Part shown: piece after piece, positions 1-41,664 of the stretch
How positions within the stretch are numbered: the first letter of the stretch is position 1
Layout of the letters: the number at the start of each line of letters is the position of its first letter
IMG/VR virus record: IMGVR_UViG_3300037834_000022
Location: 1-45,498 of that record
Direction: 5' to 3' (one strand)
DNA from: a virus
Taxonomy: Duplodnaviria > Caudoviricetes
DNA length: 45,498 nt
Notes under the pieces: model-generated
Database searches by the model: none
What the model was told of the DNA's origin: nothing
Seen by the model: only the letters and a program-made list of their open reading frames with translations
Made by a program: the position numbers and the translations under genes

Positions 1-1188
1 TCAGGCGCTTGCCTGATCTTGGGGCGCGGACTGTACCAAAACAGTACCAGTGCCGCCACCTTTGAGCTTCTCCAGCTCCAGCAGATCGGCGTCTGAATCG
101 ATCCAGCGCGCGTAGCGCTCGAGCAGGATCTGGACGCTGTGCCCCAGCTGCTTGGCAACGAATGCTGGGGTCATGCCGGCCATCAGGCAGATGGTCGCGT
201 AGGTGTGGCGCGCAGCATACTGCGGTCGCCAGCGAATGCCCAGCGCTTCGGTCGCCGCCTTGAGGTATTCCTTGGGCGTGCTCTCCGAGGCGATGTAGTC
301 GCCCCTCCCATCCGCCGGCTTGAAGACGTAGGTTGCGTCTTCGTGCATCGCCAGCGCGCCTTCCAGGGCCTGCAGTGCCCTGTCGTTCAGCAGCACGTCG
401 CGTGCGTACTTGGTTTTCACGCGCTCGTGGATCTCGCCGCCCACCATGACCCGACATACCCGCACGCGCCTGCGCTCCAGGTTGACCTCAGCCCTGGCCA
501 GGCCGAGCAGTTCGCAGGGGCGCATGCCGCTGTAGAAAGCCAGCTCGAAGTAGTGGGCATAGACCCGCTGCGCGCCCTCCAGGGTGGCGTGCAGGTGGGC
601 GATGATCCGGTCGGCCTCGGCCTGCAGGTAGGGGTCGACCTCGGCGGCCTGCACCTTCACCTTGGGGATTGCCGCGGCCGGGTTCTGGCCGATCAGCCCG
701 TCGACGATTGCTGCCCGGTAGATGCCGCTCAGGGTGTTCACGGCAAAGCGCCTGTCCGTCATCGATGGCCAATCGATGCGCTGGACGATCTTGCGCAGCA
801 TGAGCGAGGTCACCTGGTTGACTGGGATGCCGGCCAGGTCGGGCATCCAGTAACTGTTGAGCACCCGCTTGTAGTTGTTGCGGGTGTTCTTGACGATCTC
901 GCGGCTGTCCAGCCAGAGCTGGGCATACTCGCCGAAGGTAGGCGTGGCCTGGCCGAGCATGTAGCTGGTGTTGGGGAACAGCTCCAGATACTTGTCGTCG
1001 GTGAGTAGGCCGAGCCGGTTCAGTTGTTTTACTTGATCAAGGAGACTGGCGGCTGCCGCGATCCCCTTGGGCGTTTGAGGATAGGGGAGCGTTTCGCAGC
1101 GGCGGACTTTGCGCCAGGTGAAGCGGATGCGCAGTCGTTGGCCGACGGATTCGACGCCGGCGGGCATGTCCATTGGCTTTCGAGCCAT
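1..1188 (-). CDS. int: Tyrosine recombinase/integrase with N-terminal arm-binding domain
   Basis: Motifs SGMRPCELLGL, ARHTYAT, QLGHS...RYARW; likely start MARKPMDMP at 1188 rather than 1413. Confidence 0.93.
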   Translation of the reverse strand: MARKPMDMPAGVESVGQRLRIRFTWRKVRRCETLPYPQTPKGIAAAASLLDQVKQLNRLGLLTDDKYLELFPNTSYMLGQATPTFGEYAQLWLDSREIVKNTRNNYKRVLNSYWMPDLAGIPVNQVTSLMLRKIVQRIDWPSMTDRRFAVNTLSGIYRAAIVDGLIGQNPAAAIPKVKVQAAEVDPYLQAEADRIIAHLHATLEGAQRVYAHYFELAFYSGMRPCELLGLARAEVNLERRRVRVCRVMVGGEIHERVKTKYARDVLLNDRALQALEGALAMHEDATYVFKPADGRGDYIASESTPKEYLKAATEALGIRWRPQYAARHTYATICLMAGMTPAFVAKQLGHSVQILLERYARWIDSDADLLELEKLKGGGTGTVLVQSAPQDQASA

Positions 1189-1370
1189 GCGTTGTACCTG
1201 CTGATGCTGTAGATGATGCGGCCATCCAGCTTCTGCCAGACGCCCTCGGGGATGATCTTCCGTTCGCGCTTGCGCTCCAGGGCCTTCTGCGTGGTGCCGA
1301 TCAACTCGGCCAGCTTGGCCTCCAGCACCTTGTCGACGGGATAGGCGTTCAGTTCCTCGGCTGCGCTCAT
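1029..1370 (-). CDS. xis: Excisionase-like protein overlapping integrase 5' end
   Basis: wHTH-like KLAELIGTTQKALERKR...IPEGVWQKLDGRIIYS; position directly upstream of int; ATGA coupling to previous gene. Confidence 0.75.
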   Translation of the reverse strand: MSAAEELNAYPVDKVLEAKLAELIGTTQKALERKRERKIIPEGVWQKLDGRIIYSISRYNAWLESQWTCPPASNPSANDCASASPGAKSAAAKRSPILKRPRGSRQPPVSLIK

Positions 1371-2440
1371 GCTGCGTCCTCCTGCATTTCAACCGGCTGC
1401 CAGTCGCTGTCACACAGGCCGTAGGCGCTGCTGCAGGCGGTGGCGTCGGTTTCGCCGTCGCTGGCGATCAGGTCGTACTGGATGCCACCGCGTGTGGTGC
1501 GCGACCACTCAACGGCCTGGCGGATGTTCGCGATGTCGACGATCTGCTGAGCGCTCATGTCCTTGATTGAGCCCTGCTGGTGCTTGGCATTGGCGCCGGC
1601 AAAGAAGGTGGCGCCTTGGCGCTTGCTGGCCTGTCTCACGAGGTTTTCCCAGTGCTCGATGCGGTCGATCACCTCGGGCCAGCGGGCAGCAATCTCGCGC
1701 AGCTCGCCCTTGCGGCAGTTGATGCAGGGCATGCAGCCGACGCGGCCGGCGCCGAGGGTGTAAAGCGGGTTCGGCTTGATACCCATGTAGCGGTGCGCTT
1801 CGAACACGGCGGCCACGTCCCACTTGAGGATCGGGCGGTAGTTGTAGAGGCCGCCGCCCACCTCGTCGCACTCGGCCAGATAGCGGCGCACGTCGGATTC
1901 CTCTCGGCGTACACCTTGCCAGCTCATGATCATGTTCTGTCCGTCCATCAGTGGCAGCATGACCTGCTCGATGATGACGTTGCGCTTGAGTTCTTCGGTG
2001 CAGAACTGGGCCTTGCGACTGGGGAAACGGCCTTTCCACAGGCACAGGTCAAGGAACGGGATGCCGCTCGGCTGGAGTACCTGCAGGGCGGCTTCCACGA
2101 TGTTTTCTGCCACGCCCTGTTCGCGCCACTTGGTGCAGATGAACTCACGTTTGCGGGCGATCTGGCGGGAGAAATCCGCGCGGCGTCGCTCGATGCTAAC
2201 GCCCGTGGCTTGCTCCAGATAGTCGATGTACTCCAGCGTCAGCTCGTGCTCGTTGCCGGTGTCGGCGAACACGGCGCGCAGGTTGGGCGCGCCCTGGGCG
2301 ATGGCCAGCAGCAGGAGGGCGGTCGAGTCCTTGCCGCCTGAGACGCTGACGATGTTGTGCAGCAGGCCCAGCAGGATCTCGGTCGGGTGGAATGGCCAGC
2401 GGATCGCCGTGGCCAGGTCGAATTGGGTTGGGGCGGTCAT
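1367..2440 (-). CDS. Phosphoadenosine phosphosulfate (PAPS) reductase-family PP-loop protein
   Basis: PP-loop SVSGGKDS, FADTGNE, FCTEELK, GVRREES, RVGCMPC. Confidence 0.88.
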   Translation of the reverse strand: MTAPTQFDLATAIRWPFHPTEILLGLLHNIVSVSGGKDSTALLLLAIAQGAPNLRAVFADTGNEHELTLEYIDYLEQATGVSIERRRADFSRQIARKREFICTKWREQGVAENIVEAALQVLQPSGIPFLDLCLWKGRFPSRKAQFCTEELKRNVIIEQVMLPLMDGQNMIMSWQGVRREESDVRRYLAECDEVGGGLYNYRPILKWDVAAVFEAHRYMGIKPNPLYTLGAGRVGCMPCINCRKGELREIAARWPEVIDRIEHWENLVRQASKRQGATFFAGANAKHQQGSIKDMSAQQIVDIANIRQAVEWSRTTRGGIQYDLIASDGETDATACSSAYGLCDSDWQPVEMQEDAA

Positions 2441-3375
2441 GCTGCACCCCGCTGGACATCATGGCAGGGGGCCGGCAAGCTCGGTGCTTTTGAGGTGGCG
2501 AGGCGCCGGCGATGTCTGACAACTTCCTTGATAGAGACGTGCCGCGATTCACCTGGCGTGCAGTGATGCTCTGGGTAGCGTTGAGCCCCATTGCCGCTGT
2601 AGCGGTTTTCTTCATTGTTAGGGCGGAGGCGGCTGCTGCTTGGGTGCAGGCTGTCGGCTCCATCTTGGCAATTCTGGCTGCGGTCTGGATCGCCAGACAG
2701 GCTGATAGGCGAGCAGACAGTGAGCGTTTGCAATCTCAGGAAGTCTGCCTTGCGGTTGCGGCAAAAATCGCCAAGGACATATCTAGGACTGCAAAAGGCT
2801 TTCAGCTGGTTCTCAAAGTGATCGCTGAGAATGGCAACTGGTCCCAGGCATCCGATGGGCTGAGAACCCTTCTCGGTAAGGCAGAGGCGTTCGATGCAAC
2901 TAGGTTTGCTAATGCTGAAACTGCTACGGCGTTTCTTGAGCTGATAAGTCACCTCAGAGATTTGATGGCATCCATTCGATACTACGAAGCGAATGGCAAG
3001 GACAACTGGACGCTCCCTACTGTGGCGAACGAAATCGATGTATTGGTTCTTACCGTGCAGCGGTTTCTCGAAATAAGCTTGCACAGGTAGGCCTTTGTAC
3101 CCCTTAACAAGCTGCGCGTGCTGGCAACTTTGAGAGCGGAGCGATGGGCTCAACTCGCGGGCGCGGCGCACGCCTGTCGTGGGGTGTGCAGCTGCTGCGC
3201 AGCTGGCGGGCAGGGTATTGGATGATGTCGCGCCTTTGGCGCGGCGGTCTATAACGCCCCCGCGCGAGTCATGCAGGCGGCCGGCCGGCGCCGTGCAGGG
3301 CAGGTTCAGCGGGTGATGGCCGCCGCCGTGCTGTCGCACGGCAGTGGCTGGGGTGGCGGCGGGGGCTTGGGTCAT
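2437..3375 (-). CDS. Putative 312-aa low-complexity 'bridge' ORF spanning an antisense moron
   Basis: ATGA overlap with upstream gene at 3372-3375 and with downstream gene at 2437-2440; no recognisable domain. Confidence 0.4.
   Translation of the reverse strand: MTQAPAATPATAVRQHGGGHHPLNLPCTAPAGRLHDSRGGVIDRRAKGATSSNTLPASCAAAAHPTTGVRRARELSPSLRSQSCQHAQLVKGYKGLPVQAYFEKPLHGKNQYIDFVRHSRERPVVLAIRFVVSNGCHQISEVTYQLKKRRSSFSISKPSCIERLCLTEKGSQPIGCLGPVAILSDHFENQLKAFCSPRYVLGDFCRNRKADFLRLQTLTVCSPISLSGDPDRSQNCQDGADSLHPSSSRLRPNNEENRYSGNGAQRYPEHHCTPGESRHVSIKEVVRHRRRLATSKAPSLPAPCHDVQRGAA
2453..2481 (+). promoter_or_regulatory. Candidate sigma70-type promoter of the antisense moron
   Basis: TGGACA-17 nt-CAAGCT, about 30 nt upstream of ATG 2512. 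Confidence 0.4.
2512..3090 (+). CDS. Moron: hypothetical membrane protein (two N-terminal TM segments, helical C-terminus)
   Basis: Hydrophobic stretches AVMLWVALSPIAAVAVFFIV and WVQAVGSILAILAAVWIA; AT-richer than flanks; opposite strand to operon. Confidence 0.8.
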   Translation: MSDNFLDRDVPRFTWRAVMLWVALSPIAAVAVFFIVRAEAAAAWVQAVGSILAILAAVWIARQADRRADSERLQSQEVCLAVAAKIAKDISRTAKGFQLVLKVIAENGNWSQASDGLRTLLGKAEAFDATRFANAETATAFLELISHLRDLMASIRYYEANGKDNWTLPTVANEIDVLVLTVQRFLEISLHR

Positions 3376-3917
3376 GCGGCAGCCCTCGCTCGGTGGGTGG
3401 TGGCTAGCAGCTGCATGAGCCGGTCGAAGTAGGCCTGTGCGGCTTCGGGCTGGGTCATGGGCTTGATGCGGAACTGGGCCGGGTGGGTGCCGGTGAGGCA
3501 CGGCCAGGCGTCCGGGTGCGGGGCCATCAGGTCGCGCTTTTCGGTGGCCAGGGCGATCAGGTCGGCATCGTGGACGCTGGGCGGCAGCACCGGCTCGATG
3601 TCGAAGCGGTGGCAGATGGCGTGCCATACCCGCATTTCGATCTGGCGGTACTCGGGCAGTGCCTGTTTCAACGGGCTGACCAGGTCGCCAACGTAGGCTT
3701 CGGTGGCGTCATGCAGCAGGGCTTCCAGCTGGTACTGCGCGGGCACCAGCTCGGCGACGACGAGGCAGTGCTGGGCGACGCTGTAGAAGGTTTTGACGTG
3801 GCCGTTGAAGCGGCACTGCATGCTGAGTGCGTGGGCAATGTCGGTCGGGTCGACCATGTGGGCGGCCGGTTCGAGCAGGTCGAAGCGCTTGGCGCTGCGG
3901 GTGATGATCCAGCTCAT
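3372..3917 (-). CDS. HD-domain phosphohydrolase (YfbR/YfdR-like 5'-deoxynucleotidase family)
   Basis: DIAHALSMQCRFNGH, YSVAQH, ALLHDATEAYVGD, HDADLIALATE. Confidence 0.88.
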   Translation of the reverse strand: MSWIITRSAKRFDLLEPAAHMVDPTDIAHALSMQCRFNGHVKTFYSVAQHCLVVAELVPAQYQLEALLHDATEAYVGDLVSPLKQALPEYRQIEMRVWHAICHRFDIEPVLPPSVHDADLIALATEKRDLMAPHPDAWPCLTGTHPAQFRIKPMTQPEAAQAYFDRLMQLLATTHRARAAA

Positions 3918-4627: not shown

Positions 4628-4697
4628 GGTGTTGCTCCTCGTGTTGGCCGGTCGCTGGTGGTGGCAGCGGGTGCGGCTGTCAGGTGGTTTTGGTGGA

Positions 4698-7311: not shown

Positions 7312-7944
7312 TTACCCGAAGATGGATTTTTGCCAGTGTTCCTCGGTGATGATGGCTAGCGGGTTGCCGTTTTCGCGCAGCTCTACGGCCTTTTTGATCT
7401 TGGTGCCGTAGCTGCTGTGTAGCCATTGGTCGTTGCCAATGGAGCCGACGACGAGGTAGTGGACTTTCTTGCTGACGCTCGGGGCGATGAGACCGCCGCG
7501 CTCGGTCACCAGCGCTTCGCAATCTTTGCGGGGGCCGTAGGCCATGACGCCAGTGAACAGGAACAGGCGGTTGTCCCAGTGCAGGCTCGGTGCGGGCTGG
7601 TCGATGGGGAGCGAGGTCGGTGCCTGGAATGGGTGGGCCTTGCAGAGCTCCAGGCCGGTGAACTGTTTGAGCAGACCCAGCAACTCGGCGGATTCGGCGG
7701 CGTCCAGCAGGTTGTCGCTGAGCATGTCGGCGAGGCGGCGATAGAGGATGTTTACCACCGGGTCGGCCAGGTGGTTCAAGTTCGTCTCGATCCAGCGCTT
7801 GAGAAACTCTGCCTCTTGCTGGTTGATCGTGTTGTCAGCTGTGATGCCTGCCGCCAGGCCTATCAGGGCGTCGGCTGATCTGCGATCAATGCGGGCCTCA
7901 TGAAAACAGCGACTGTTCTGAAACTCCTGATGCAGATCGACCAT
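7312..7944 (-). CDS. BRCT-domain protein with helical (TerB-like) N-terminus
   Basis: C-terminal FLFTG...CEALVTERGG...SVSKKVHYLVVG...KIKKAVEL...IITEEHW is a BRCT signature. Confidence 0.82.
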   Translation of the reverse strand: MVDLHQEFQNSRCFHEARIDRRSADALIGLAAGITADNTINQQEAEFLKRWIETNLNHLADPVVNILYRRLADMLSDNLLDAAESAELLGLLKQFTGLELCKAHPFQAPTSLPIDQPAPSLHWDNRLFLFTGVMAYGPRKDCEALVTERGGLIAPSVSKKVHYLVVGSIGNDQWLHSSYGTKIKKAVELRENGNPLAIITEEHWQKSIFG

Positions 7945-8344
7945 CCTGCGCGTCTCCTTCGGCTGTGTCTTCCGTGGTTTGGTCTAGGAGCTTGCTGATG
8001 TCAGGCGTAAAGGTGACCACCATGCCGGTTTTGCTGCAGGTGATGGTGACCTCTGCCGCAGGGTCTATCGCAAGGTCCTCGCCGCGCAGGCCTTGCCATT
8101 GGGCGAGGTACTGCAGGGCTCCATACTTCTCTAGCTTCTTGAGGGTGCGGCTGACGCCGCCTTTCCAGTTGGTTGCTGGCAGTTCGTCGCGGCCGGCAGC
8201 CTCGGCCAGTTCGGGCTTCGACTTGGCCAACTGGCGACCGACTTCCCAGCACTTGATCAGACCTTTGTCTTCGCCTTCCCAGGTGGCATGCCAGTCGAGG
8301 CCGGTGCGAATGGGGGTGTCTATGCTGCGGCGGATTGCGGTCAT
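7898..8344 (-). CDS. Hypothetical protein coupled to cI
   Basis: ATG 8344 overlaps cI stop (TAATG); 148 aa globular-looking. Confidence 0.75.
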   Translation of the reverse strand: MTAIRRSIDTPIRTGLDWHATWEGEDKGLIKCWEVGRQLAKSKPELAEAAGRDELPATNWKGGVSRTLKKLEKYGALQYLAQWQGLRGEDLAIDPAAEVTITCSKTGMVVTFTPDISKLLDQTTEDTAEGDAQDGRSASGVSEQSLFS

Positions 8345-9030
8345 TAGAGGGCGCCTCCGTGCCAGACCACGCGGCCAACGATGCTCAGTTGTTCTAGGTC
8401 TGTATCGCTGACGGGCTGGTCGGGGTAGGCGCGCTTGTCTTCGTTGTCGCTGCGGATCAGCCACCCGCCAGTGAGGGACTGGATAAGCCGCTTGATGATC
8501 AGCTCGCCGTCATGCTTGCGGATGGCATAAATGCGGCCATCACGCGGGGCTGTCTGGCTTTCGTCGAGCAGCACTACATCGCCGTCGCAGACGGTCGGCT
8601 CCATGCTGTGGCCCTGGACGTAAATAACGTGCAGGCTGCGTTCGCGCAGGCTCATGCGGGTGAGCCAGGCGCGCTTGAACACAAGGCCGCCCTTGACTTC
8701 GACATGGTCGTTCAGCTGGCCGTTGCCGGCGGCGCCGTGCGCGGTGTACTGGGGCACCAGAGCATAGTCCTGGGCTGATGGCGTATACCCGTAGACGCCT
8801 TGGCTCTCGGTGGCCTGGGCAGGGGCGTCGTAGTCGAGCAACTCGATAAGCGTGGTATCGAGAGCCGCTGCGAGGGTGCGTAGGTCCGAGAGGCTTGGTT
8901 CGCGCTTATCGCGTTCGTAGTTGCCGATACGTGCTTGGCCGTTATCCCACCCGCATGCGTTTGCGAGTGCTGTTTGGGATAGACCTTTGGCGCGGCGGAG
9001 CCGAGCGATTCGATTGCCGAGAGTTTCCAT
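8344..9030 (-). CDS. cI: CI-like repressor (XRE HTH + S24 autopeptidase; PrtR-like)
   Basis: HTH RLRRAKGLSQTALA...IGNYERDKREP; cleavage site GAAG; VQGHSMEP and LIIKRL catalytic Ser/Lys. Confidence 0.92.
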   Translation of the reverse strand: METLGNRIARLRRAKGLSQTALANACGWDNGQARIGNYERDKREPSLSDLRTLAAALDTTLIELLDYDAPAQATESQGVYGYTPSAQDYALVPQYTAHGAAGNGQLNDHVEVKGGLVFKRAWLTRMSLRERSLHVIYVQGHSMEPTVCDGDVVLLDESQTAPRDGRIYAIRKHDGELIIKRLIQSLTGGWLIRSDNEDKRAYPDQPVSDTDLEQLSIVGRVVWHGGAL

Positions 9031-9390: not shown

Positions 9391-9768
9391 CCCGGCCGCC
9401 GTTGTAGCGGTGGCCGCCAGAGCCCGAGGGCTCTGTGTTGCCTGCCTCTCCACCACAGATCAGCAGGCTTGCTGTGACCACCTGACTAAGGGGAGCCACG
9501 GCGTGACTATAGCAACACGTCATGCCGTGGTCACTGGCAGCTTGCTACGGCGGCTGCCACACCCGAGGCGCGCACCACCACTGCGCGCCGCACCTGGGCC
9601 GGGATGCCTGGGGTTGTTCGTCCGCTGCCACCACCAGCGGGCGAGCTGTAAGGGCAGGGCCTGTGCGGAGCATGGGCCTTGCTCGGGGTGCGGTCGGTTC
9701 GCCGGCTGCATGCGACCACCTGACTATGGGCCCCATACCAGTCGGTATGGGGCCGGGAGTTTTGCTCT
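9363..9768 (+). ncRNA. Highly structured cro-cII intergenic RNA (about 10 consecutive hairpins, three with CCACCAC loops)
   Basis: Stems readable by eye, several with G-U pairs valid only on the + strand (see findings). Confidence 0.6.
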
Positions 9769-24548: not shown

Positions 24549-25022
24549 ATGAGTAAATCTCTAGCAGTAGCTCAGTACATACTCGATGCGACTCGTGATA
24601 TGCACGACGATGCGCTTACGCCAATGCAGCTAATCAAACTCGTTTATGTCGCTCACGGGTACATGTTGGCTGAGTACGGTGAGCCCTTGCTTCGTGAGCC
24701 TGTAGAGGCTTGGAAGTACGGACCAGTAGTTCGTAGCGTTTACGAGGCGGTACGCGATTATCGTTCCTCGCCTGTTGATCAAGTGCCGGGTGCGCATCGT
24801 TGGAATGGTCGGTTCACCGAGCAGGAATGTGACATCATGGATCAGGTGGCTGAGATCTATGGTGGAATTAATGGTGTACGCCTTTCGGCCGCAACCCATA
24901 AGCCAAATACGCCTTGGAGTATCACTTGGGATCGTTTCGGGCGGAACGCCGAGATTTCCAATGATTTGATTGAGGATTTTTACGATTACATCCTCTCTCA
25001 ACCAAGCCACTCATCTCTATAG
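24549..25022 (+). CDS. Panacea (DUF4065/SocA-like) antitoxin
   Basis: LTPMQLIKLVYVAHG, EAWKYGPVV, THKPNTPW; AT-richer than flanks. Confidence 0.9.
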   Translation: MSKSLAVAQYILDATRDMHDDALTPMQLIKLVYVAHGYMLAEYGEPLLREPVEAWKYGPVVRSVYEAVRDYRSSPVDQVPGAHRWNGRFTEQECDIMDQVAEIYGGINGVRLSAATHKPNTPWSITWDRFGRNAEISNDLIEDFYDYILSQPSHSSL

Positions 25023-25046
25023 GCCAGTCGTATAGGGCGTAAAGGG

Positions 25047-25430
25047 ATGTTTGACGATTCTGATGAGCAGGGCAGCCTAGAAAAAAGGCCCAGGTTCTTT
25101 TCCAAGAAAACCAAAACCGCGGATACCCTTGCCAACAGCGAAGCAGCTGCGCTAGCCAGTAACGAGGATCTTGACGCGAATGGGCGGAAGCAAGAGCACG
25201 GCCGTCACCAAAAATTTCGTGATCATGCCAACCTAGCTGCAATCTTGGTGCTCTGGTTCGTCGTAGCTTTGACCCTCTTAGGAATGTTTGTTTTCAGCGT
25301 CAATCTGATGCTTCCAGAATGTCACCAATGGCTCACCCCTGCTGCGCAAGAAAAAATTCAAACGCTCCTGGCGGCTGCGTTGTTATCAAGTGCGATGACT
25401 GGTTACGTCAATAGGCGTATGGAGCCATAA
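25047..25430 (+). CDS. Two-TM membrane protein, candidate cognate toxin
   Basis: Charged N-terminus plus two C-terminal hydrophobic helices, directly after Panacea gene. Confidence 0.7.
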   Translation: MFDDSDEQGSLEKRPRFFSKKTKTADTLANSEAAALASNEDLDANGRKQEHGRHQKFRDHANLAAILVLWFVVALTLLGMFVFSVNLMLPECHQWLTPAAQEKIQTLLAAALLSSAMTGYVNRRMEP

Positions 25431-25434
25431 GCGT

Positions 25435-25800
25435 ATGAAGATCACTGCAGGGACATTCGGTATCAAGGGCTCGGCTTTCATCGGCGGAGGCAAGCTGCAC
25501 ATCGAGTCATCCAAGAAGGGCAGCTATCTGCCGGCGCAGATTCACAGCGTCGAGGTCGATCAACTGACCGACAAGCGCTTCAGCGTGGGTCGTGCACTAC
25601 TGGGGGCATTCCTACTGGGGCTTCTACTCATGCTGGTGGGTGGGCCCATCGGTTTACTGGCGGGCGTGCTGATCGGCGCACTTGGCGGCTTTGCTGCCGA
25701 CAAGAGCAACGCCGCCGACGTCGCCTTCGTCGACGGCAACAAGGTGCGGCTGATCTGTACCGACCGCGCCGTAAGCAAGTTGATCAGATTCAAGGGCTAA
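25435..25800 (+). CDS. Membrane protein with Gly-rich TM hairpin
   Basis: ALLGAFLLGLLLMLVGGPIGLLAGVLIGALGG. Confidence 0.75.
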   Translation: MKITAGTFGIKGSAFIGGGKLHIESSKKGSYLPAQIHSVEVDQLTDKRFSVGRALLGAFLLGLLLMLVGGPIGLLAGVLIGALGGFAADKSNAADVAFVDGNKVRLICTDRAVSKLIRFKG

Positions 25801-39411: not shown

Positions 39412-41664
39412 ATGAAATTCAGCTTACTACTCGCCCGCATGCTCCCCTTATTGCTGATGGTCCCCTTGGCTAATATTCGTGCCGTGGAGGCGCCGCGCGC
39501 TGTGGACCCTGCAGTGTGGGGCGCATATGCGCAGCTAGTAGGGCATCGCTTCAAGGCACCCCAAGCCGGTTGGTACGGGTTTGAGATCGTCTGGAGTAAG
39601 CCTGGAGAGGAAATTCGCGAGACCAAGTTGTGGTTTGAAACTGGCGACGTGGAGTGGACCCGGTTGGTTCGTCCTGGCGCGCAGAAGGGTGAGCTTATTG
39701 CCACCGGTACCGGCTCATACCACCGCAAGCCCAAAGACTGGAAGGGGGTCATCGAATCCGACGGTTCGGTATCTTTTGCTCTGCAAGAAGGCTTTCTTAA
39801 GGCCCCCTATCGTGTCACCGTTGTCAGCGGACAACTGAAGATCGAAGAGAGCGGCGAGCCGCCGTTTGCTTTTGTGCCCGAAGCTGCGCATACAGCCACC
39901 GATGGCGTGGCGCAGCAATCGACAGTGGCGCCAACAGCATTAATCGACACCTCACCTGCGCAATCCTTTTCGTCAGCACCTGCGGCAGGATCTGCGGCGC
40001 CTTCGGGGTACTGGGGAGTGTTGGAGCAACTGGCAGGTAAATCCTGGTTGCAGCACAATTCCGGACTGTGGCAGCTGGACTCTAAATTACTGCGTTATAG
40101 CTGGTCAGAGGACCGACGCGCGGTAACGTTGACTTCCGGGGACGGTTACACGGCAAAGAGAATTGGGGCTTTTAGGATGGATTCCACTTCTGGTCAGTTG
40201 ATTGCTGATACTCAGGATGAAGATGGAAGCCCGGTACAAGCACCAGTAAAAATTGATAGTCGTGGTGTGGTGACTGTACAACTATCCGATAAACGCCGCT
40301 CGGTTACAGGAATCGACAGCGATAGTGGCGCACTTAAGATAACTCTGGAAAAACTTACATGGGGAGGAGATTGGAAGAGTATTCAGACCGATTGGTACTT
40401 TAATGCTGATCCGGGACCCGGCTGGGGCGTGTTCGCGAAGCTGGTTGGTTATAACTGGGTACTGAATGATGCCGTCAATCTGCATTTTCGCTGGCTTCCT
40501 CAGCGAGAGCTCGTTGAGGTCGCTATCTACCACTCCTACTCGTACGAGGGCGGAATCGATTACACGCGACGTAAAAACCAACCACTACAGTTGGTGAGCC
40601 GTGGCGAAGGCTCTGAATATCACTTATTCGGGGCGCCGGTGGGGCTGACTCTGTTAGAGGGGGATACTAAAGCCACTCAGATCTCCGGCAAGAATCGCTA
40701 CCGTTTTGAGCTGCTTTCCTCGCCCGAGCGGCTGCTGATTCATTCGGAGAAATGGGTCGGTGGTGAACTGAGAAAATCTACTGGGACGTTCTACCGAGAA
40801 GACCAAAAGAAAAAGAACGAGCGCCTAGCCGGTGTCAAACGTTTCCAGGAAGCCCGTGCGGCTAGTGAACGCTCAGACCGTTGGCTTGCAGCCTCCGAAG
40901 CGCTGGGTGGTGTTTTGCAGGCGGCGAACGAGGTCGCCGCAGTACGGGTAGCCCAATCTCAAGCTGACCTTGATGCCACTTTAGATGCTTTAGCCAGGCA
41001 GGTAGCAGCCGAACGGACGAGGGGCTTGGGCCAGAAGGCCGAGGAAAGTTCCGGATATCAGTCGACGACAAGTCAGGATCGCATGCGGTTGCGGGATGGG
41101 GCCGCCTCCGAGCCAACGAGCTCGGCGAGTCATCTCACTGTCGATGCGGGGAGGGTGAGGGGGGTAGAAAATGCTGTCACCGGTAATAGCCAGGCCTTAA
41201 CGCAGCAAGTATTTGGTCGCGAACAGCAACTTGCTGAGCAGGAACGCGAAGCGCAGCAGAGAGCTCAACAGCAGATGCAGTCATTTGTGAGAAGCAGTGG
41301 AGCATCACAGCCCTTGTCTTCTACTACAGAGCCGAAGCCCGGCGCGATTCAGGACTCCGAGACTGGATCAAAAACATCTTTTATGGGCTGTGTGGTGGAT
41401 GACCATCGGGGAAAGGTCACTTACTTGTCGAACATCGCCCAGATAGTCCACCAGGGCGATCAGCAGCGATGGAACGAGGTTTTTTTCCGGCGCTTTGTCG
41501 CAGAGACCTACAATCGCGATGTTGCGGCACTCTATGGTAGATGTGCGCTCGATTGGAGTAGCTCGGCTGGTGTTGAGCGACAGCTCGAAGGAACCCGTAG
41601 GGTACAGGCTCGCAACGGTTTCACTATAGTCGAGGTCGACTGGAGCCCGAGGAAACAGCACTAA
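39412..41664 (+). CDS. Moron: 750-aa predicted exported protein with three internal repeats
   Basis: Signal-peptide-like N-terminus; three WGxxxxLxG repeats; coiled coil; AT-richer than phage core. Confidence 0.85.
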   Translation: MKFSLLLARMLPLLLMVPLANIRAVEAPRAVDPAVWGAYAQLVGHRFKAPQAGWYGFEIVWSKPGEEIRETKLWFETGDVEWTRLVRPGAQKGELIATGTGSYHRKPKDWKGVIESDGSVSFALQEGFLKAPYRVTVVSGQLKIEESGEPPFAFVPEAAHTATDGVAQQSTVAPTALIDTSPAQSFSSAPAAGSAAPSGYWGVLEQLAGKSWLQHNSGLWQLDSKLLRYSWSEDRRAVTLTSGDGYTAKRIGAFRMDSTSGQLIADTQDEDGSPVQAPVKIDSRGVVTVQLSDKRRSVTGIDSDSGALKITLEKLTWGGDWKSIQTDWYFNADPGPGWGVFAKLVGYNWVLNDAVNLHFRWLPQRELVEVAIYHSYSYEGGIDYTRRKNQPLQLVSRGEGSEYHLFGAPVGLTLLEGDTKATQISGKNRYRFELLSSPERLLIHSEKWVGGELRKSTGTFYREDQKKKNERLAGVKRFQEARAASERSDRWLAASEALGGVLQAANEVAAVRVAQSQADLDATLDALARQVAAERTRGLGQKAEESSGYQSTTSQDRMRLRDGAASEPTSSASHLTVDAGRVRGVENAVTGNSQALTQQVFGREQQLAEQEREAQQRAQQQMQSFVRSSGASQPLSSTTEPKPGAIQDSETGSKTSFMGCVVDDHRGKVTYLSNIAQIVHQGDQQRWNEVFFRRFVAETYNRDVAALYGRCALDWSSSAGVERQLEGTRRVQARNGFTIVEVDWSPRKQH

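Follow-up and report, generated by a model that had tools for sequence, protein, structure and literature searches.

The DNA analysed here (the window; 45,498 nucleotides) is a whole provirus record of 45.5 kb. Its minus strand carries the integrase, excisionase, PAPS-reductase-like, HD, PrtN-like and repressor genes, and its plus strand the cII-like, primase-helicase and lambda-like head genes. The provirus is a Pseudomonas-type prophage with a tightly linked early operon, which is ATGA-coupled throughout and has a largest untranslated gap of at most 71 nt. Relatives of the module described below were, where they carried a name, nearly all from Pseudomonadaceae.

Between the HD and PAPS-reductase-like genes, an open minus-strand frame (the bridge) runs antisense to an accessory gene (the moron) on the plus strand (Table 1). 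The geometry given in a preliminary description of the locus was confirmed in the sequence. The bridge ATG overlaps the HD stop codon in an ATGA at 3372-3375, and the bridge TGA overlaps the PAPS-like ATG in an ATGA at 2437-2440. The bridge ends in AA like most genes of the operon (...GAA here; 9 of the 14 early ORFs do likewise), and its 312 codons lie in exact register with the 192-amino-acid moron at 2512-3090. The codons TTA, CTA and TCA, which would read as stops in the bridge, were counted 0, 0 and 0 times in the moron, and the gene is AT-richer than its surroundings, with 53% GC compared to about 65% in the flanks. Lying in opposite orientation between co-oriented operon genes, the moron has the layout of a noncontiguous operon. 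The operon strand opposite it is C-rich (171 C, 136 G).

Table 1. Positions of the features at and around the antisense gene in the window.
Feature	Position	Strand	Basis or remark
Tyrosine integrase gene	1..1188	-	PF00589
Excisionase-like gene, ATGA-coupled to the PAPS-like gene	1029..1370	-	phrog_9668, E 4.5e-40
PAPS-reductase-domain gene, downstream of the bridge	1367..2440	-	PF01507, E 1.7e-21
Bridge ORF, 312 codons then TGA, ATGA-coupled at both ends	2437..3375	-	Frame translation
Ribosome-binding site with the ATGA stop-start overlap that leads into the PAPS-like gene	2437..2450	-	GGGG 5' of the ATG
Candidate sigma-70-type moron promoter, TGGACA-17-CAAGCT	2453..2481	+	Inside the last 25 codons of the bridge
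Antisense moron, 192 aa, WVQAxGS family	2512..3090	+	phrog_33632 (unnamed), E 3.5e-7
Conserved header module, coupled ORF, about 91 codons here	3098..3375	-	291 distinct loci
Long inverted repeat, imperfect, with its end at the GY junction	3099..3185	-	Core pairs invariant
Short hairpin with covarying pairs	3227..3254	+	Only covarying hairpin of the header
Possible hairpin with CCATCAC loop	3307..3325	-	Variant of the CCACCAC loops at 4664 and 7241; place not conserved
HD-type phosphohydrolase gene, upstream of the bridge	3372..3917	-	YfbR-like, weak Pfam match

Further accessory genes are present in the window. Two genes behind the repressor (7312-8464, minus strand), one with a weak BRCT match, hold 3 and 7 TTA/CTA/TCA codons, in contrast to the moron of the same phage. 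The tail operon contains an AT-rich sense-strand block (24549-25800, plus strand) holding three genes, of which one is SocA/Panacea antitoxin-like (PF13274), one is hydrophobic (127 aa) and one is 121 aa long. The lysis genes are followed by a CsrA/RsmA-like gene (PF02599; 39036-39335, plus strand) and by an AT-richer gene of 750 aa that matched nothing in Pfam (39412-41664, plus strand).

The antisense gene and its promoter

The moron is predicted to encode a membrane protein, its AlphaFold model (pLDDT 82) comprising N-terminal hydrophobic helices, a long helix and a helical bundle. Foldseek searches of the PDB and BFVD returned no fold at E ≤ 0.001, and the Atlas neighbours carried no names. 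The search for defence and exclusion families gave no PADLOC match and a single sub-threshold Pfam match, to DUF4131, and tblastn with two cargos (the antisense genes of this and related loci) found no match in the annotated phage set. The position of the gene, its predicted membrane anchor and its fast divergence suggest a role in exclusion or defence.

The preliminary description had also placed a candidate moron promoter in the 3' part of the bridge. A pattern that was written from the cassette sequences in which it was counted (TGGAC-17-CAAGCT) occurred in 32 of 68 bridged cassettes, compared to a shuffled mean of 0.35, whereas a generic sigma-70 scan found none. The motif in the bridge tail is a likely candidate for the moron promoter. 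In the relative L439, RNA contigs covered the cargo and about 300 nt beyond it. Of 7 runs, from three studies, 4 gave contigs limited to the cargo and the DNA around it and 3 gave contigs across the whole region; the RNA was unstranded, and the run query was centred on the cargo, so missing flanks carry no weight. These runs give a weak hint that the L439 cargo is expressed apart from the operon.

Stop-free frames at homologous loci

The probability that the moron alone would lack all three codons was 3.5e-4 under its own third-position A use, 0.0035 at the rate of the unbridged homologues, 0.015 at that of GC-matched controls, and 0.26 at that of the GC-rich core genes of the phage (0.7 per 100 codons). 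Chance at this one locus depends on the null, and the locus by itself is not decisive; it is the homologous loci that settle the openness of the frame.

Loci sharing the flank of the bridge were found by searches on the HD gene and a junction pattern, the openness of the frame never being a criterion, and were oriented with nhmmer, the training alignment of which included one likely false match (L177). The searches yielded 291 distinct loci with the header, the upstream module of the bridge, and of the 287 with at least 65 codons of DNA upstream, only 2 had the header frame closed within that stretch. A cargo was defined by length and position only, as a complete antisense ORF that is 150 codons or longer and ends no more than 60 nt from the junction; an amino-acid-composition score for real versus shadow ORFs failed to discriminate and was not used.

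A complete antisense ORF was present in 35 of the 291 loci, one of which (L345) is a near-copy of the window locus. All 35 cargos were in register 0 and 34 were stop-free, the header frame also being broken in the sole stop-carrying locus (L236). TTA, CTA and TCA together were observed once in the 35 cargos; 235 were predicted from the codon use of the individual genes. As the codon model overshoots by about a third (191 observed versus 304 expected in 35 genes with stops), about 150 is a safer expectation, and the conclusion is unchanged. The median identity of the cargos was 17%, the WVQAxGS motif being common, and they formed 18 clusters at 35% identity. Seventeen of the 18 clusters were stop-free, compared to 13 of 104 clusters of GC-matched control ORFs (binomial 7e-15).

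Selection against stops in the second frame was thus evident, and the absence of stops is not that expected from codon use, an explanation that the preliminary description had named as capable of overturning its reading. The alignment that it had proposed, of related prophages with conserved flanks and different antisense cargos, bore the reading out, with an open minus frame in 34 of 35. Its second refuting case, that stops are common at homologous loci, fails in this group (1 of 35); stops are, however, carried by 31 of 72 homologues sampled in another way, by protein motif alone.

For this second sample, 80 loci were picked, and the removal of 7 duplicates and 1 cut gene left 72 distinct complete genes. 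TTA, CTA and TCA were absent from 37 of them; a further 4 were reclassed as stop-free post hoc, their stops lying upstream of the likely start; and the remaining 31 carried 1-17 in-register stops each, at 2.9 per 100 codons. The moron family is therefore made up of bridged and unbridged members of similar GC content, the bridged cargos having 48-58% GC. Since many stop-carrying members likewise lie antisense between early genes, in lambda-like early operons, the requirement for a bridge is not general across phages.

The C-richness of the operon strand was equal in unbridged and bridged members (median C/G 1.29 and 1.30, respectively). On a quick tree of the family, the bridged or unbridged label was clustered, and it required 14 changes, of which at least 4 are forced. 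The cassettes of L423 and L426 are 80% identical in DNA over the cassette only, the flanks not being shared; L423 lies in the operon and has 0 stops, and L426 lies outside the operon and has 2 TTA codons.

An upstream early-operon gap of more than 150 nt was left uncovered by genes in 0 of 10 bridged and 6 of 10 unbridged records (Fisher p 0.011), as judged with a crude gene caller and hand-set operon ends. These longer gaps fit, but do not show, transcription of untranslated DNA by lambda-like antitermination in the unbridged phages. A boxA-like pattern was matched once in 5 records, with one mismatch, and inspection by eye of the unbridged cargos revealed no consistent chain of shorter coupled ORFs that could act as a relay.

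The constraint on the two overlapping frames was compared in 10 bridged pairs, using single-difference codons of the cargo-overlap part. With the limited power of this test, cargo-silent changes were equally frequent whether the bridge residue was altered or not (transitions 0.145 versus 0.135, transversions 0.083 versus 0.070), and cargo-changing rates (0.007-0.024) were six- to ten-fold lower than cargo-silent ones. The purifying selection on amino acids expected of a functional overlapping gene was not found in the part of the bridge over the cargo. Site counts and rates predict about 32 silent changes that create stops within the 10 pairs; the observed number was zero, partly by definition of the class. 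Other A-ending codons were kept in the bridged genes, with shares of 0.13-0.27, and GTA, ACA, GCA, CCA, GGA and CGA were all used. As the cargo is constrained, the bridge residues are neutral and only the stop-reading codons are missing, the moron appears to be the protein gene and the bridge a frame held open for openness itself.

The locus had been read as a cargo slot. Varied cargo is indeed bridged, in three unrelated families, although most of it belongs to one very divergent membrane-protein family (WVQAxGS). The second family (L119:2546-3142, L055, L064 and L078) is soluble, about 195 aa long and bridged. It obtained no name from Pfam, PADLOC or Atlas; its RxxxxH motif (L119/L150) may be HEPN-like. 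The third family (L069, L072, L075, L078 and L080) is about 102 aa long, stop-free and 3'-coupled, and sits between HD and methyltransferase-like genes. Double antisense cassettes lie close together in L062, L069, L078, L453, L493 and L495; both cassettes are stop-free in L062, L069, L078 and L453, and both carry stops in L446/L493.

Junctions, header and hairpins

At their downstream end, 72 of 87 stop-free cassettes finish in a -1 overlap with the next ORF, compared to an unbridged baseline of 10 of 31, and these overlaps mostly lie 24-26 codons past the cargo start. At its own downstream end, the header is followed by short tails, by in-frame sense fusions to ordinary phage genes, or by antisense cargo. 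It is an always-open coupled ORF with two hairpins, and in-frame fusions join it to xis-like genes, among others (for example, in L086 and L202). Because such fusions to varied genes occur in many prophages, the 3' end of the header would appear to act as a shuffling junction. The header was rejected as an essential part of the slot, as bridged cassettes exist without it; these headerless bridges start two codons past the HD stop or are fused to a truncated HD gene. In the annotated phage collection, no DNA match for the locus was found, and a part of the header was present in 4 records.

The long stem of the header was not accepted as a covarying RNA: its core pairs show no variation, which is partly imposed by the search pattern. 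The short hairpin is followed by a T-rich run on the plus strand in most relatives and by a weak tail in the window, and is a candidate terminator of moron-direction transcripts; a generic terminator scan gave nothing above shuffles. For the CCATCAC hairpin of the preliminary description, a 6-bp stem is possible, but the hairpin is missing from the predicted minimum-energy fold. Its loop varies among close relatives, being CCGTCAC, CCGCCAC or absent. Rfam gave no gathering-score match in the window or 14 relatives, one search returning only matches with E>3. A role of the header like that of attC or put elements, suggested by resemblance, is unsupported.

Hairpins with a CCACCAC loop are found elsewhere in the window, just upstream of early-left ribosome-binding sites at 4664 and 7241 (minus strand) and as an array between cro and cII (9450-9640, plus strand). 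On its opposite strand, the array is complementary to the start regions of genes 4627 and 7218 over about 20 nt. In the loci as a whole, the CCACCAC loop was found on 146 distinct stems 5 bp or longer, compared to 0-4 for CCATCAC and permuted loops, and CCACCAC stems numbered 172 on the operon strand and 4 on the opposite strand. Antisense RNAs of the c4 type block translation and so lead to termination. Pairing of the cro-cII hairpins with early gene starts fits a translation-dependent operon; an association of the array with bridging was looked for across records and was not established.

Mechanism and relation to known systems

The geometry, the specific loss of TTA, CTA and TCA from many divergent cassettes, and the neutrality of the bridge amino acids are observed directly. 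The stop-free frame is probably a translated ribosome track, which would prevent polarity, or loss or decay of the mRNA, across the insert. Rho terminates untranslated C-rich RNA in Proteobacteria, and an untranslated C-rich stretch of 0.7 kb would be expected to invite Rho-dependent polarity. With the bridge frame translated after induction, ribosomes would follow RNA polymerase across the antisense insert along the stop-free operon strand, and the message would then reach the PAPS-like, xis and int genes without being terminated or degraded. In the lysogen, the moron's own promoter would drive its expression, which the opposing early transcript would damp. Sequence alone leaves Rho polarity, mRNA decay and the loss of re-initiation inseparable. 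The interpretation offered in the preliminary description is supported with qualifications; translation of the frame, polarity on xis and int, and the role in exclusion or defence are the parts that we infer.

It is unlikely, though still a serious alternative, that the frame merely delivers ribosomes to the next ATGA by translational coupling, transcription through the insert being unaffected without it. The frequent -1 overlaps (72 of 87 bridges) and an operon that is ATGA-coupled throughout favour such coupling. However, the majority of downstream starts are served by a ribosome-binding site of their own, and a relay ORF over the last 25 codons would seem enough, yet all 190-300 codons are purged of stops.

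We regard it as improbable that the bridge encodes a functional peptide, such as a lytic-only inhibitor of its own antisense moron. Precedents are described in the available parts of two papers: Ith, which inhibits its antisense partner Tha in S. aureus phage 80alpha (PMC11087260), and olg1/gene 10 of phage Fc02 (PMC9936078). The header DNA is conserved, and 35 other database proteins resemble the bridge ORF, although this likeness is largely limited to the header and tail. Against a peptide function, the bridge residues over the cargo evolve neutrally in the 10 pairs, a test of limited power outside which the header codons lie; the bridge ORF has no Pfam or PADLOC match; and its N-terminus is interchangeable, being the header, a truncated HD gene or two codons.

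A slightly smaller chance still is given to the proposal that the main effect of the ribosomes is to stop the early transcript from forming a duplex with the moron mRNA that RNase III would cut. An overlap of about 0.6-1 kb between the two transcripts would be expected, and the extent of the L439 contigs beyond the cargo agrees with this; in 80alpha, by contrast, RNase III does not provide the chief route of antisense control, according to the portion of the report available (PMC11087260). Finally, a shadow ORF kept open without selection, by GC-rich codon bias and shared ancestry, can almost be dismissed: the core-gene rate (P 0.26 for 192 codons), the 13 of 104 stop-free control clusters and the clustering of the label on the family tree favour it, but the cargo, at 48-58% GC, makes free use of other A-ending codons, unbridged homologues with similar GC carry 2.9 TTA/CTA/TCA codons per 100, the open frames span three families and a median identity of 17%, and about 32 stop-making silent changes would be expected in the 10 pairs, where zero is partly a matter of class definition.

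If the frame is indeed a path for ribosomes across the insert, a wider rule may apply. With rather less assurance than for the single locus, we lean towards a design rule of proteobacterial temperate phages, in which a backward insert in a translation-dependent early operon would be recoded without TTA, CTA and TCA, turning the operon strand into a ribosome track with no demands on its sequence. Whether a given phage has antitermination could then be told from the presence or absence of a bridge. The cassettes point to selection on translating itself without selection on the product, and to a codon-use constraint imposed on an accessory gene by the opposite strand. The stop-free signature may serve as a marker for locating lysogen-expressed morons. 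There is also an annotation trap, some gene callers choosing the bridge over the real gene, with about 35 such proteins in the database.

The feature is real and selected and is apparently undescribed in print; its mechanism we infer. A literature search covering mainly freely accessible papers found no published description of coupled stop-free bridges, and the available part of bioRxiv 2020.02.20.958058 mentions neither polarity nor coupling. New here are the unbridged control from the same family, the neutrality test, the dispensable header, and the pair of cassettes inside and outside the operon. The comparisons that follow are with the available parts of the cited papers.

The olg1/olg2 shadow ORFs of P. 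aeruginosa are likewise long, in-register antisense ORFs of a GC-rich pseudomonad, but they are reported to be translated and under purifying selection, whereas here the cargo is AT-richer and there is selection only against stops (PMC8850804). The nearest Pseudomonas phage case is olg1/gene 10 of the temperate phage Fc02, where a lysogen-strand gene is also antisense to an early lytic operon gene. That system has exclusion activity and both of its products are active, in contrast to the operon-strand product here, which shows no amino-acid constraint (PMC9936078). Ambigrammatic narnaviruses share a selected open reverse ORF, apparently without a functional protein, which is required for persistence (PMC8316113, PMC8155312). 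They are, however, eukaryotic RNA viruses in which the whole segment is involved, and the present feature is a local cassette of a DNA prophage with ATGA overlaps and replaceable cargo.

The noncontiguous operons of S. aureus and phage 80alpha resemble the present locus in having an antisense gene inside an operon, with its own promoter there and only a candidate promoter here (PMC11034616, PMC11087260). In 80alpha, this layout switches off a defence gene upon induction (PMC11087260). The transcript of a noncontiguous operon crosses the antisense gene untranslated, which has been ascribed to the uncoupling of transcription and translation in Gram-positive bacteria (PMC11034616, PMC11087260). 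Here, in a proteobacterial phage, the crossing would instead be made along a selected stop-free frame that is coupled at both ends. In the noncontiguous-operon atlas, the crossing of an untranslated antisense gene is a puzzle solved only for Gram-positives (PMC11034616). Bridged cassettes would offer a solution for Proteobacteria; if the proposed rule is true, they would parallel ambigrammatic genomes among DNA phages, and would explain how noncontiguous operons withstand Rho.
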